Shown: one piece after another, positions 16,248 to 21,286 of the stretch
Position numbering within the stretch: position 1 is the first letter of the stretch
How the letters are laid out: each line of letters opens with the position of its first letter
Assembly (NCBI GenBank): GCA_010093605.1
Contig: MU004195.1
Location: 806,001-870,000, forward strand
Origin: Lophium mytilinum
Lineage: Eukaryota
DNA: 64,000 bases
Direction of reading: 5' to 3'
Notes under the pieces: model-generated
What the model saw: only the letters and a program-made list of their open reading frames with translations
Databases searched by the model: none
What the model was told of the DNA's origin: nothing
Program-made: the position numbers and the translations under genes

Positions 16248-16703
16248 TCATGGTGGTGGAGAATGGTCCTCGATCTTGGAAAATGTACTGTCAAGATATG
16301 TAGCAAAGAACAGCGGTGCGATGTCGTATTGGGTACTGAGGTGGATGAGTGTGAGCCGGTCGATGTTCTCTACCAGAATCAAACGACCCTGACAGTCCGG
16401 AGAGATGGTCGTCACTTCTCTTAATTTCGACTCCCTTAGCGACTCTTCCGGTACTGCGCTCGATGCTTTTTCAAAACCCTGGGCTCCCAAATTTTGAGCT
16501 GCTTTTGCGTGGGTCTCTCCGTCTTTAGGACTTATCTGCCAAGATTGAGGACTCTGGGCCTCGTCCTGCGAATAGTCGATGCAAAAAATAATGGCTGGAT
16601 GGACTTGTCTTTCGTTCGCATCGGCTAGAAAGTCTGCTAGTCGATGAAGGCAAGGGTTGCGGTCCTTTTGATCATTCACGTAGTCTACATAGCTGTAGGC
16701 CAT
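16248..16703 (-). pseudogene. Truncated N-terminal fragment resembling fungal CorA-like membrane proteins
   Basis: MAYSYVDYV..NPCLHRLADFL..RLILVENID..LSTQYDIAPLFFATYL resembles the N-terminal region of fungal CorA-like proteins (from memory). The ORF stops after PPP with no recognisable continuation before the converging gene. Confidence 0.4.
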
Positions 16704-17496
16704 GATGATGTCTTCGAGGCCTCTTCTAAGCACTCATCCATGAGCTGTCAGTGAGCTGATAAGATCTAGAAATTATCAGCCCTCATCCATCTCATCATTC
16801 ATCAACACCATTGCAGAAGCCACTTAGTTACCTCACGAGATATTCGCTACCATGCCGTTGCATATCGCAAGTAGATTAAGCTAAAATCTGGACTCATACT
16901 GTCGAGTAAATGCAGATTCGTTAATGTCATGTGGAATCCGGGGCGTTTGTCCTGTTGGCAGCGAAAGGCTTATGGTGGCACGAGTATGAGGCAATGATTG
17001 CCTCCTCACGAGCGCCTTGTAATCTAGGCAACAGTTGTACTCTGCTGCAAGACAACTCACGAGGCAGACTTGGGTTACCTTTGTAGGCCCCTATCATTGG
17101 CAGATATGCTGACATGCATGGCCTTTGACTAGGCTCAACCAGATTCATGGGTTTAAATACGGGCGCTAAGTGCACCCTTCGAGAGCTAGGCGCATAGGTC
17201 CACGCTGGCCTTACTAGCGCAGACATTCAGCTCCCGGCATCCGATAACCTCTTCCCATCGTAACTGAGTTCCTCTTCATTATACACTGATAGTCGACCTT
17301 GCAATACAGACCCAGGATCTCTTCTTTGCTCAAGTATTACTGCGAAGCGAGGATAAATAAACTTCCTCTGAAATCGAGCGTCAGTCCATTTCTTCTAGCC
17401 TGGTTCTGTCTCTCTGAAACTTTACTATAACTGAGGTATATCTTCAAAGGGACGGGTATATTGGAATCCTCACTCTAAGCTTCCAAGTTTGCCCCA

Positions 17497-19590
17497 TTGC
17501 TACCCAATAGTTCGAGAAATGGCCGGGCAATCGACACATTTGTGAAAACTTGGCTGCGGCATTACCACTTCTGGGACACTCTCGTAGAGTCAGTTTCGGA
17601 AATTTGCAAAATAGAAATCAAGGAAAAGCTGAAGTTGAAATGTCACATCCAATATCGCGCGAAATCTCGAGATTCAGTGAAAGGGAGCATCGAACGGAGA
17701 CAAAGAGCACGAGGACAAGACTATACCACGCAGGAGGAGATTAATGAAGATATGATCGATTTGGCGGGAGTTCGTATCACGCTCACCTTCCCCAAAGACG
17801 TAGATGAAGTAAAAAGAGTTTTGATGAGTATATTCGGAGACGTAAGACAACGTTTCTGGGGTCTAAACGAATCTGGTCAAGCCGTTGAGTGCGGCGAAGA
17901 GAAAGGTCGATTTATCGGATATCGGGCGACCCATTTTCTGGTCAAATGGAAAGAACCACCGAGTGAATACCGACTGAAAACGAATGAGGATCATCTCGGC
18001 AGCACTGTTGAGATTCAAGTCACTTCCATCATCATGAGCGCCTGGCAAGAAGCGCAACATGACCTGGTGTACAAACAGCTGAATGGAGCTCCATCAGAAG
18101 ATGAGAGGCAACTCCTTGACATGATCAACGGGCTTGCACATGCTGGGGAGGTGGCACTCACTCAACTTCAGAACTGTCTCAAGAGAAGACTTGAAGATGG
18201 GTCTAGAGCTTTTGCGGACGAATATGAGGTGCGCACATGGCTCAAAGACCAAGTTCCGGACCTGCTAAAGTTCAAATGGCAAAACAAGGGGGTTTACATG
18301 CAACGATTGACCACCCTTTTTGAGGTGCTTCAGATATTCGACTTGAAGACTCCGGAAAATCTCCGCGAGGCTCTGAAAACTCCTTTCGAAACCGACAAGG
18401 CTCCCAACGAATTGTCAGCCATGTTTCAAGAAAAGTTGGCGACGGAATCAGACGCAGAGGAATGGGAGCACACTTTTCGAAACGATCCAACCGACTGGGC
18501 GACTCTTAGAATTTGCACCTACCGTTTCCAGGAATCCCTACAGAAGGACTCCAAAGGCCCAAAAAGTCCACCACCTATTCCAGCAAAGAAGTCGTCTATC
18601 TTCAGAAGAGATGCGCTAAGCAAAGACCAGCCTTCTTCCATCTATGACGCACAACCACTGGATGCTGGACGCTACCGATATCACTATGAAACCAACTTGG
18701 GCTTCATCTACGAGGGATGGTCGATGTCAAAACGGAAGCAAACGCGTCTTAAAGCATTCTTCATCGTCAACACCATCAATTTCGCCTTATCAGAGCCCCA
18801 AAGGGTGGTTTACTTCCAAGGACTCGTCGCTGAAACTCTTACTTGCGATCGTGCACCGGACTCCATGATCCGCTCTCTGGCAGCGGTACTGACGAGTAAA
18901 CCTGACGGCAACATGAAAGAAGAGGATATCAGTAATACGAACAGGATCTGGGACGGCCTCTTGTGGACAACAGTCAAATTTCGGTCCATGGTTTTGCGAG
19001 TAGGGCTGGCGCTTTCAGTTTCCGGTGTTGTCATCATGCCTGCATTAGCCTATCCGGAATTTATCGACGTGAACGCACGTCGCCCGACAATTTGGCCAGG
19101 ATCTTTGCCGTACGGGCTTCGAAACTTATGGGGAGATGGCGATAAATCAAGTACCAGGACCACCATTACTATCATGCCCAAGGAAGAACAGTTGGTAATC
19201 GGCGAGTTCTCATGGAGGAGAGAGCGAATATCTTTGGAGAAAATTGCGACAGGCGAGGGCTGGTATCCGGCAGGCGTTCCATTAGGTCTTTCATCTTCTC
19301 CGCCACCTGACTGGGGAATGGAAGTCCCTCCGTTCACACCTCACAAGCCTATTGTGGAGTCCGACGACGAAGACCCTGAACTCTATTCAACACCCGCCGG
19401 GCCCCGCCAAGATGGTGATTATCATGGATCCGATCATCGCAGCGGGCGCAACGGCATGCACCTAACAGACATCAATACATCGTCTCCACTACATTTTCCA
19501 CAACAACCAACCCCAATGAAGATGCAATCATACACGGGTAGTACTTTCCGAGAGTACCAAAAACCCGAGGATAGGAGCCGCCCGACATAG
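17497..19590 (+). CDS. RelA/SpoT (RSH synthetase / nucleotidyltransferase) domain protein with unrecognised C-terminal region; start codon uncertain
   Basis: Motifs in the correct order: YRAKSRDS, DLAGVRI, GYRATH, VEIQVTS, AWQEAQHDLVYK. The ORF has no in-frame ATG before the domain; the ATG at 17519 is one base out of frame. Confidence 0.88.
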   Translation: MLPNSSRNGRAIDTFVKTWLRHYHFWDTLVESVSEICKIEIKEKLKLKCHIQYRAKSRDSVKGSIERRQRARGQDYTTQEEINEDMIDLAGVRITLTFPKDVDEVKRVLMSIFGDVRQRFWGLNESGQAVECGEEKGRFIGYRATHFLVKWKEPPSEYRLKTNEDHLGSTVEIQVTSIIMSAWQEAQHDLVYKQLNGAPSEDERQLLDMINGLAHAGEVALTQLQNCLKRRLEDGSRAFADEYEVRTWLKDQVPDLLKFKWQNKGVYMQRLTTLFEVLQIFDLKTPENLREALKTPFETDKAPNELSAMFQEKLATESDAEEWEHTFRNDPTDWATLRICTYRFQESLQKDSKGPKSPPPIPAKKSSIFRRDALSKDQPSSIYDAQPLDAGRYRYHYETNLGFIYEGWSMSKRKQTRLKAFFIVNTINFALSEPQRVVYFQGLVAETLTCDRAPDSMIRSLAAVLTSKPDGNMKEEDISNTNRIWDGLLWTTVKFRSMVLRVGLALSVSGVVIMPALAYPEFIDVNARRPTIWPGSLPYGLRNLWGDGDKSSTRTTITIMPKEEQLVIGEFSWRRERISLEKIATGEGWYPAGVPLGLSSSPPPDWGMEVPPFTPHKPIVESDDEDPELYSTPAGPRQDGDYHGSDHRSGRNGMHLTDINTSSPLHFPQQPTPMKMQSYTGSTFREYQKPEDRSRPT

Positions 19591-19844
19591 AATAGCAAAC
19601 ATGCCTACACCACAACCAGTAGTGATAGGTTTCCTTATTCTAACATCTTTCTATTGGCAACGAAGTTCGAATTTGCCCCCCTCTCCTGCCGTAAATTCCC
19701 AGAAGACATAGGGTTGCAAAGTAACCGACTCCATCACATTCCTCTCTACTCTTCGTTGTCACTCAAGTCTACGGACCAGACAGCTCGATAAATCGCGTCG
19801 ATGTTTGGAGAAAACGTTGGACTAAACTCCTATATCCTTACTCT

Positions 19845-20330
19845 CTACCCATCCATCAAACTCCCCCTCTCGTTCTTCTCGACCTCGCTGGCCAGTCCTC
19901 CCACCCGCGCCGCCGGCCGAACGCTATCCGCCTGCACCCACAGAACCAAAGCCTCCCCCACCAGTCTTATACTCAGGAACACGGTTACCACAGTCCCGAC
20001 CACCAGCCCGCTCTTCACGCTCCCGCCAACCATCCCGCCCTGCGCCGGCGCCATGAAGGCGGTCGTGTAAAGGTGGGCGAGGAAGAGCACGCCGAGGGGA
20101 GCACCGGCGAGACCGCTGTCGTCGGAGCTGGCGCTACTGTTTGGAGGGTTGGGTGGGGGAGGGGTAGGAGCCGCGGGAGTGGGAGTGGGATTGGGTAAGA
20201 TGAAGCCGCTTTTGCAAAGGAGGAGAGTAGGTATCGCGAGAAGGGCGAGAGTGAGGGAGAAGACGAGGATGGCGGCGGTGGCGTGCAGGCCTTGGGTGAT
20301 GCTGCTGGTGAGGAGGGTGAGGAAGGCCAT
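19845..20330 (-). CDS. Hypothetical small membrane protein (about 3 TM, Pro-rich linker)
   Basis: 161-aa ATG ORF with hydrophobic segments; similar to the gene at 29695-30131. Confidence 0.55.
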   Translation of the reverse strand: MAFLTLLTSSITQGLHATAAILVFSLTLALLAIPTLLLCKSGFILPNPTPTPAAPTPPPPNPPNSSASSDDSGLAGAPLGVLFLAHLYTTAFMAPAQGGMVGGSVKSGLVVGTVVTVFLSIRLVGEALVLWVQADSVRPAARVGGLASEVEKNERGSLMDG

Positions 20331-21286
20331 GATTGGAGCGGAGGACGAGGAAAGTGTGAGAGGGGCTTCAGTGGACGGGTTTTCGCGGGAATGGTTTCTT
20401 TTTTGCGGGAAGAGCTATGGAAAGAAGAGGTTCGAAAGCCAAATTGGAGTGTCTTTCCAAGTGATGGATAGACTGGCGGTAAAATGACGGGGTGCCTCAG
20501 CGGAACATTGGTTTTTCGAAATGTAAGATGTAGAGGCTGGGAAGGGCGTTTCGTGGATCTAAGTATTATAGGAGCCTACGACGTTGGACAAGGGCTCAGC
20601 CACGAGGGCGATGTTGGTGAGGCATTTCGGTGGCGACGAGGCAGACTCCACTGATCGACATGAAACAACTAAGAAACTTCAAAGTTATGGTGACAAGCGG
20701 AGCACGAATTAAGAAGCCCCTTCCATGTTATAGTCGACTACCCTACCTACTTCTTTAATTGACGCACATGTAGTGTTCTAGTTCTTGAGTGTGCTGATGC
20801 CTTGTTGCCTCAACGAAGATGGGAGGTTGGCAGGTGGCAGGTGAGGTATGAGGTGTGACAAGGCTGAATAAGCGCTAATCTCAATATAGACTACACGTGA
20901 TATGGATTAAGAAATCAGCAAGGCTGTACACGGCGATCACAACTGCAACTCCAATCCCGTATACTTATGGAGGTATTGATACTAAGCGAAATAGTTGAGC
21001 GCTTAGAAGTTAAAATGGTTGCGTACTGCTTAAGAAGTCTTGTCGGGTTTTCATGCTGCGTGGCTTAGAAGGACATTAGCTTTACCCAACCCACCACCCC
21101 ATCTCTCGCACTCGTACTTCCAAAGCCTCCACTCCACGCCCCAAAACAACACCCTCACAAGCCTATCCAACATAAAGGCTACGATCTCCGTTCAACATCG
21201 CAAACGACACACGTCTAACCTCCTCGCCGTGCCCGCGCCGTCTCAAAGTCCCCCCCCCCCAGGCTCCCGGCCCCTTCAACCCAACC

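Follow-up and report, generated by a model that had tools for sequence, protein, structure and literature searches.

A stand-alone fungal RelA/SpoT-type synthetase fused to a clade-specific C-terminal domain, most likely disabled in this Lophium mytilinum genome

Introduction

What does a RelA/SpoT-type synthetase gene do in a fungus? The question is raised by a gene on the + strand of a 64,000-nucleotide stretch of Lophium mytilinum contig MU004195.1, hereafter the window, whose positions are counted from its first letter. The gene body is an open reading frame (ORF) at 17479-19590. According to three sources, fungal RelA/SpoT-type enzymes have no known product or role and are regarded as intriguing but uncharacterised (PMC4986451, PMC10197012, PMC3153485). 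The RelA_SpoT domain is listed as an N-terminal domain of NOD-like receptors (NLRs) by Dyrka et al. 2014 (PMC4986451) and by a 2025 survey of Sordariales, and a 2023 review describes the documentation of its role in fungi as poor (PMC10197012). Moreover, Atkinson et al. 2011 describe unplaced synthetase-only proteins in Aspergillus and Gibberella, fungi that are said there to lack a hydrolase of the RelA/SpoT homologue (RSH) type (PMC3153485). No experimental work on a fungal RelA/SpoT protein turned up in the open-access literature searched.

The explanation that we favour, with moderate confidence, is that the locus encodes a small alarmone synthetase (SAS) module fused to a clade-specific C-terminal domain, that it belongs to a family of probable pyrophosphokinases, and that this particular copy was probably disabled recently.

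Results

The frame at 17479-19590 is single and open throughout, comprises 703 codons from stop to stop, and ends with the stop codon at 19588-19590. Residue numbers in this text take the codon at 17497 as residue 1. The preliminary description of this DNA had reported the RSH synthetase motifs in order, and all five are indeed found along the frame: YRAKS (R54/K56/S60), DLAGVRI (D88/G91/R93), GYRATH (Y142/H146), EIQVTS (E172/Q174) and AWQEAQHDLVYK, which holds H188, Y192 and K193. All catalytic residues are therefore present in the ORF of this copy. About 450 residues follow C-terminal to the synthetase domain. The codon at 17497, earlier taken as the start, is TTG (Leu) and not a start codon.

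The database model of the locus, P0002, is a hypothetical protein of Lophium mytilinum of 508 aa. It splices out a 32-nt "intron" at 19150-19181 and then continues in another frame to an early stop, thereby departing from the frame kept in all homologues and losing a conserved C-terminal β-unit. An intron of 32 nt is too short to be real; we regard this feature as an artefact of the gene model and the continuous ORF as the better one. The earlier claim of an intron-free gene thus stands for the gene body. Sequencing run X3, whose type was guessed, yielded only three short contigs of depth 2-3 at this locus (19014-19171, 19280-19523 and 19904-20193, the last outside the ORF), which are uninformative on expression.

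We identified the synthetase domain by profile, sequence and structure searches. Pfam RelA_SpoT (PF04607) matched residues 54-194 (17656..18078, + strand) with an E-value of 3.3e-10 and 40.7 bits, above the curated gathering cut-off of 27; the hidden Markov model search that the preliminary description had proposed as a check thus came out positive. The only other Pfam row was CBM_11 (E 0.18). No HD hydrolase domain, no NACHT or NB-ARC NTPase and no ANK, WD40 or TPR repeats were found in the protein by the Pfam search, in line with its earlier characterisation as stand-alone. A sequence search of the PDB returned eight small alarmone synthetase sequences and one noise row. A profile search with the N-terminal domain returned exclusively RelQ/RelP-type enzymes (best 2be3, E 1.5e-11), and no long RSH, CapRel, FaRel or Tas1 appeared in it up to an E-value of 10.

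An AlphaFold model of the full protein, computed from a 19-row alignment (A2), reached a mean predicted local distance difference test (pLDDT) of 73 and a predicted template modelling score (pTM) of 0.72, with low-confidence stretches at residues 1-5, 356-403 and 597-697. In VIA-align, the closest chain was RelQ 5dec_A (Z 17.3, root mean square deviation (rmsd) 2.2, 180 of 188 residues, 24% identity), followed by RelP 6ewz_A (Z 16.2) and 6fgk_A (Z 16.0). Rel 8acu (Z 12.1), the exported SAS 8vx3 (Z 11.8), CapRel 7ztb (Z 10.9), Tas1 6ox6 (Z 10.4) and FaRel 8pu1 (Z 7.5) scored lower. Foldseek agreed, with E-values of 2e-7 to 4e-6 and template modelling (TM) scores of 0.64-0.77 for RelP/RelQ (6ex0_B, E 2.3e-7) and an E-value of 1e-3 for CapRel. 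The assignment as a RelA/SpoT-type synthetase, which goes far beyond a chance resemblance, is hence borne out by the Pfam match, the SAS fold and the conserved active site described below. Sequence and fold are both closest to the (p)ppGpp-making RelQ/RelP and not to the solved toxic small alarmone synthetases (toxSAS).

We then assessed conservation of the active site in an alignment of 127 domain sequences, which includes two fungal groups, clades A and B, that are defined below. R54, K56, S60, D88, G91, R93, E172, Q174, H188, Y192 and K193 are kept in all 16 clade A rows and Y142 in 15 of them; in clade B, no fewer than 49 of 53 rows retain each of these positions. In FaRel2, the donor ATP and Mg are held by R64, K66, S70, D90, G93, R95, E145 and Q147, with Y128 in the G-loop (PMC11782079), and CapRel uses R79, R116 and Y155 (PMC9712102). 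All of these residues have counterparts in the window protein. Since the active-site residues are conserved across the family, its members are probably active pyrophosphokinases.

A simple alternative is that the family is an ordinary (p)ppGpp-type alarmone synthetase of fungal stress signalling whose C-terminal domain acts only in scaffolding or localisation. This would fit the best structural and sequence matches, which are (p)ppGpp-making enzymes, and the retained G-loop Tyr and catalytic Glu. However, the window protein scored 34.1 bits against a cut-off of 320 for the NCBIfam equivalog NF053588 (GTPPhKinYjbM), and is thus not a RelQ/RelP orthologue. Moreover, the Arg of the RelQ motif EIQIRT, which helps to hold the acceptor phosphates, is replaced by Thr, Gly, Ala or Met in 83 of 83 fungal and near-bacterial rows, while it is found in 18 of 44 more distant bacterial rows. 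With this Arg missing, the acceptor may differ from GDP/GTP. The reported absence of an RSH hydrolase from fungi with such synthetases (Atkinson et al. 2011, PMC3153485) and a patchy distribution with a disabled copy are likewise ill-suited to core signalling. We therefore regard this alternative as decidedly unlikely.

To place the protein, we searched for fungal relatives. A search with the whole protein gave 17 proteins at E <0.001 among 8000 scored candidates; PF04607 is present in 16 of these, and the remaining one is a short match of low complexity. Thirteen of them (P0003-P0015) share 37-57% identity with the query, and we refer to this group as clade A. In eight (P0003-P0008, P0010 and P0011) the match extends into the C-terminal region and takes in 83-89% of the query; in the other five it takes in 41-49%. 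The source names include Pyrenula, Byssothecium, Amniculicola and Lophiotrema. The window protein belongs to clade A, a small fungal family of about 16-20 proteins in the collections searched.

A profile search with the N-terminal domain retrieved 68 longer proteins, ranging from 542 to 2000 aa, which by source name belong to Aspergillus, Penicillium, Talaromyces, Paecilomyces, Botrytis, Xylaria, Biscogniauxia, Eutypa, Pestalotiopsis, Colletotrichum and other genera. The fungal set outside clade A is termed clade B; it is larger and belongs to the Pezizomycotina. PF04607 is the sole Pfam family in 66 of the 68 proteins, and none of the 68 carries an HD, NACHT, NB-ARC or repeat domain. The single-sequence search returned no relative above 1220 aa among 8000 word-sharing candidates, which is weak evidence against an NLR fusion. 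Judging from the genera named in Atkinson et al. 2011 (PMC3153485), clade B is probably the divergent fungal SAS ("divRel") of these authors. One clade B protein from Pestalotiopsis sp. (P0045, 1002 aa) carries FAD_binding_3 (PF01494) after the synthetase module, which could represent either another variant of the C-terminus or two merged gene models.

Relatives were also present in bacteria. Scanning one genome per prokaryote species gave 63 loci, and twelve of these (L001-L012) match nearly the whole 229-aa N-terminal query at 33-40% identity, except that L012 covers residues 76-229 only. They come from Bacillota, Chloroflexota, Actinomycetota, Spirochaetota and other phyla, and their ORFs are mostly 413-443 aa long. 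RelA_SpoT is found in all nine proteins of the bacterial alignment (A5). Five of the nine bear the motif R-x-(I/L/V/M)-R-N-x3-H-G, of the Rx4-6H type, near the C-terminus (ORFs at L001:2968-4254, L005:2992-4281, L006:2995-4314, L011:2995-4326 and L012:2968-4038), and the other four (L002, L003, L004 and L007) have R-D and no His at that motif. Pfam matches of HEPN type in these tails are sub-threshold and occur in one member each (HepT-like 0.0011, DUF4145 0.0041, and further HEPN_LA2681, HEPN_Cthe2314, RiboL-PSP and Csm6 HEPN); "HEPN-like" is therefore a reasoned label and not a passed test. A description of a synthetase-HEPN fusion was not found in the open-access literature searched. A further protein from an ENA assembly (P0060, 613 aa) groups among the bacterial relatives in the tree and combines in one chain the alarmone-synthetase module with a c-di-GMP cyclase, as judged from GGDEF (PF00990) next to PF17853.

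Profile-profile comparison by hhalign delineated what these three groups share. The conserved module spans residues 12-297 (17530..18387, + strand) and comprises an N-terminal helix, the synthetase and a helical linker of ~60 aa. Clade A aligned to the bacterial family over positions 1-296 of P0001 (37% identity, E 2e-55) and to clade B over positions 28-328 (29% identity, E 2e-40), and clade B aligned to the bacterial family over P0023 13-383 with L001 13-305 (28% identity). The C-terminal regions behaved differently. Clade A residues 298-598 without the insert (14 rows) gave a probability of 0.76% and an E-value of 0.073 against clade B (27 rows), and a probability of 0.06% against the bacterial tail. 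Our first comparisons had suggested homology between the clade A and clade B C-termini; these were inflated by the presence of P0017 in both alignments, and we rejected this candidate after the clean run. On the clean runs, a single module of N-terminal helix, synthetase and helical linker (60-90 aa) is combined with three C-terminal modules that show no relatedness at the sensitivity of these comparisons.

The trees place this module close to bacteria. In a quick tree of 96 domain rows, the 38 fungal rows of clades A and B fell together (SH-aLRT, Shimodaira-Hasegawa-like approximate likelihood ratio test, 90), inside a group of 52 (93) with L001-L012, P0016 and P0060, apart (97) from 40 rows of Patescibacteria, Treponema and deltaproteobacteria. 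A careful tree (LG+C20+F+G4) of 49 rows, chosen by hand with 79 of the 128 extracted domains omitted, nine short domains dropped earlier and no root inferred, recovered clade A (100/97), clade B (100/99) and a grouping of the fungi and the near-bacterial rows (93/92). As the bacterial relatives span a range of phyla, these sequences are most simply explained by a fungal module of bacterial origin, and a single entry into fungi is favoured.

Next to the shared module lies the clade-specific C-terminal domain, residues 298-598 (18388..19290, + strand), in which helices are followed by a small β-unit. Structure prediction and fold search of the C-terminal region, which the preliminary description had proposed, gave a confident model and no match to a solved fold. 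Modelled alone, residues 236-598 reached a pLDDT of 80.8 and a pTM of 0.83 and formed eleven helices and a five-stranded unit. The best Foldseek match of this model in the PDB had an E-value of 1.4. VIA-align against 48,161 chains returned one chain with Z ≥5, a 48-residue helical hairpin at Z 5.1, a value under the usual best score even of unmatched models. In both the full and the C-terminal model the region is predicted as a helical bundle with a small sheet and not as a solenoid or propeller. The domain is thus clade-specific and of no recognised fold, although such searches cannot prove that a fold is new. The earlier impression of an unrecognised C-terminal region of ~450 aa is upheld by both sequence and fold searches.

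We also looked for particular effector and sensor features in this region. Walker A motifs were absent from all 15 clade A proteins, and none of the 15 showed a positionally conserved Rx4-6H. A HEPN origin of the fungal C-terminus was undetectable by hhalign against the bacterial tail (see above); Csx1/Csm6 rows reached Z 4.2-4.4 with the C-terminal model and were tied with unrelated helical matches. Among the 50 VIA-align rows shown for this model there was no pseudo-zinc-finger antitoxin domain, and the YXXY hinge was not searched systematically. The best ESM atlas match (0.82) led to fungal clusters partly labelled NPHP3_N; it is below the threshold of the tool and serves as a lead only, and a second query of the atlas returned nothing usable. 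Searching the C-terminal 390 residues against 1.84 billion representatives returned 10 proteins, nine of which are clade A members (some of them fragments); the tenth, P0021, is a tandem-repeat protein with an artefactual score and was discarded.

Inspection of the 5' end revealed a defect in the start codon. An intact gene would be expected to have an in-frame start codon upstream of the catalytic motifs, but in this genome no in-frame ATG is located there. The first in-frame ATG, from which P0002 starts, is at 17752..17754 (+ strand; M86, "MIDLAGVRI") and lies downstream of the RAKS triphosphate-binding motif. In contrast, the N-termini of five homologues (P0005, P0006, P0008, P0009 and P0011), with the pattern M-A/T-x-x-I/V-D-x-F, align to the sequence "..G-R-A-I-D-T-F" of the window, and exactly where these five proteins start there is an ATG at 17519. 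This ATG is offset by +1 from the long ORF, and its reading frame (17519..17545, + strand) encodes MAGQSTHL followed by a stop, i.e., eight codons. The frame offset therefore falls inside the first five codons. The preceding 371 nt (17148-17518, + strand) contain no ATG, compared to a window mean of 16.7 ATG per kb, and no coding-like frame; we consider this leader a probable 5' untranslated region. Logan contigs of runs X1 (depth 156) and X2 (depth 114) span 16800-20200 with 0 differences and no indels, so that the offset is not an assembly slip.

Other routes to an in-frame start were considered. An upstream exon, for which a possible acceptor exists (..cccaatag, ~17510), was rejected, as the upstream region contains neither an ATG nor a frame that looks coding. 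A splice within the first codons was rejected as well, since by inspection it would remove conserved residues. A canonical slippery heptamer for minus-one frameshifting was not seen on inspection. Metagenome scans for homologue DNA, with which the start codons could be compared, gave one partial locus only, which has no 5' end.

A start at M86 would yield a catalytically dead protein with a function of the C-terminal domain only. This codon is the first in-frame ATG and the choice of the annotators, and the C-terminal domain is intact save for a disordered insertion. The product would lack R54, K56 and S60. It would also be missing residues 1-85, whose long helix and first strand are packed into the synthetase fold, so that the shortened domain would probably misfold. 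Two out-of-frame ATGs, at 17640 and 17744, also lie between 17519 and 17752. We judge this alternative very unlikely. Since ATG 17519 is out of frame and followed by a stop after eight codons, and since the product from ATG 17752 would have no triphosphate-binding motif, this copy was most likely disabled recently and may make no active enzyme.

Several points weigh against the explanation given at the outset. X1 and X2 derive from one sample, possibly the source of the assembly, and a mutation private to that culture is still compatible with the data. No stop interrupts the 690 codons that follow the offset, and this would fit a still-translated gene as well. In-frame near-cognate codons are available (TTG 17497, GTG 17542 and CTG 17554). 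The homologue starts are those of gene models and not of mapped transcripts, and P0003, P0004, P0007 and P0010 are modelled with long N-terminal extensions. Furthermore, monophyly of the two fungal clades is not firm (94/85 in the careful tree), the acceptor may not be GDP/GTP, and the role of the C-terminus is one that we infer only.

One alternative is an intact, working gene, in which a non-AUG start (e.g., TTG 17497) or another route upstream of residue 54 provides full-length active enzyme. The open 703-codon frame carries no further lesion, the near-cognate codons are located after the upstream stop and before the conserved N-terminal helix, and the catalytic residues are all intact. However, the sole ATG after the ATG-free leader is out of frame at the exact start position of the homologues, scanning ribosomes would encounter this ATG before any other and terminate after eight codons, and no homologue is modelled with a non-AUG start. 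We consider a working gene unlikely and retain the recently disabled copy as our reading.

Two further features of this copy lie in its C-terminal half. An insertion of ~55-58 aa at residues 353-410 (18553..18726, + strand) is specific to the window protein, absent in all 15 aligned homologues and predicted to be disordered (pLDDT <50 over residues 356-403). We found no GT..AG boundaries and rejected a retained intron. The 62 nt that open the insertion (18553-18614, encoding KGPKSPPPIPAKKSSIFRRD) also occur, with 6 differences, on other contigs of the same sample. Run X3 contains a 4917-nt contig of depth 168 that carries this segment twice, the two copies being neighbours that differ from it by 2 and 6 nt. 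A gene elsewhere in the genome that bears repeats and is highly covered may have been the source from which the insertion was copied. The tail at residues 597-697 (19285..19587, + strand) is of low complexity (pLDDT <50), unconserved and unaligned among the homologues.

The preliminary description had placed the gene in an accessory stretch. Its neighbours are instead housekeeping genes by domain content: the flanking ORFs encode zf-CCHC, a pof12 F-box propeller, SAE2/CtIP, thioredoxin/OST3 and a P-type ATPase. The GC content around the gene (0.46-0.50) is unremarkable. Two adjoining ORFs on the opposite strand, 16248-16733 (161 codons) and 19845-20414 (189 codons, both stop to stop), have no Pfam family; the latter is Pro/Ala/Thr-rich and overlaps opposite-strand ORFs.

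The surroundings of the bacterial relatives, taken as the genes within 3 kb, are mixed. L005 lies near a serine recombinase and an integrase-core transposase, L006 near DUF4209, DUF4145, DUF2726 and AbiJ_NTD3 genes, L011 near an IS110 transposase and a resolvase, and L012 near a phage integrase and DUF6602. L001, L002, L003, L004 and L007 have metabolic neighbours. PADLOC gave one weak match to a candidate system, PDC-S33.

These neighbourhoods bear on a further possibility, that the module is a toxic or signalling effector of fungal defence or cell death, which the C-terminal domain restrains until it senses a trigger, as in CapRel. One module with three unrelated C-terminal modules (clade A, clade B and bacteria), the four bacterial loci next to mobile or defence-type genes, the weak PADLOC match and the patchy distribution all point in this direction, and the CapRel mechanism provides a precedent (PMC9712102). 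Against it, the nearest structures are housekeeping RelQ/RelP enzymes (Z 16-17) and not CapRel, Tas1 or FaRel (Z 10.9, 10.4 and 7.5), and no toxSAS appeared in the PDB profile search. Metabolic genes surround five of the nine bacterial relatives, housekeeping genes flank the fungal gene, and NLR linkage is seen in none of the 68 longer relatives. We regard an effector role as possible, though doubtful. A conflict or defence function would draw on the CapRel analogy, the swapped C-termini and the four bacterial relatives, and the earlier suggestion that the C-terminus may be a sensor or inhibitor is consistent with the latter two.

Discussion

Based on the conserved residues, the enzyme of this family would bind the ATP-Mg donor via R54/K56/S60, D88, R93 and E172/Q174. 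An acceptor stacked on Y142, possibly a purine nucleotide or the 3' end of an RNA, would then receive the β-γ pyrophosphate on its 3'-OH. The exchangeable C-terminal domain might set regulation or targeting, comparable to fused bacterial synthetase-sensor proteins.

A bolder scenario would be that Pezizomycotina took a pyrophosphokinase module from a bacterial conflict system and re-equipped it at least two times with fungus-specific sensor or inhibitor domains, giving NLR-free, CapRel-like effectors. We hold this to be rather doubtful. If true, trigger recognition would rely on a new fold, that of the clade A domain, and the disabled copy would be a result of the turnover by gain and loss that is typical of immune and incompatibility genes.

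Independent of this scenario, our analysis adds that stand-alone fungal proteins share one module with a bacterial synthetase family bearing a HEPN-like tail, that their C-terminal halves have been exchanged from one lineage to another, and that one such C-terminal domain has a confident model and no known fold. The results provide concrete constructs towards the product of a eukaryotic cytosolic alarmone-synthetase homologue. As the in-frame start is lost in this copy, an orthologue is preferable for such experiments.

How does the window protein compare to known systems? In fungal NLRs, according to Dyrka et al. 2014 (PMC4986451), RelA_SpoT is likewise the N-terminal part of a larger protein; unlike these, the window protein is without NACHT or NB-ARC and without ANK, WD or TPR repeats. 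Clade B proteins share the N-terminal module and the stand-alone organisation (560-1000 aa), but differ by their unrelated C-terminal ~400 residues, by EIQVGT and by large inserts in the synthetase domain. The bacterial L001-L012 family, the sister group in the trees, shares the synthetase and the ~60-aa linker at 37% identity, together with GY(R/A)ATH, EIQV(A/G)S and HDLVYK. Its tail carries R-x-L-R-N-x3-H-G in 5 of 9 members, whereas the fungal C-terminus has neither homology to it nor a conserved Rx4-6H.

RelQ/RelP of Firmicutes (SAS1/YjbM and SAS2/YwaC; 5dec, 6ewz, 6fgk, 2be3 and 3l9d) have the same fold (Z 16-17.3, rmsd 2.2-3.4 over 174-189 residues) and the same donor-site, Mg and catalytic residues, and both they and the window protein are without a hydrolase domain. 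Identity is 20-24%, the Arg of EIQIRT is Thr in the window protein, and the latter differs in its long N-terminal helix, its ~450 extra C-terminal residues and its eukaryotic origin. CapRel(SJ46) (7ztb) and the toxSAS (FaRel2 8pu3/8pu4, FaRel 8pu1 and Tas1 6ox6) match less well and over the N-terminal domain only. They nevertheless resemble the window protein in overall architecture, a single chain with an N-terminal synthetase fold and a variable C-terminal domain, and share with it the adenine-stacking Arg pair and the G-loop Tyr.

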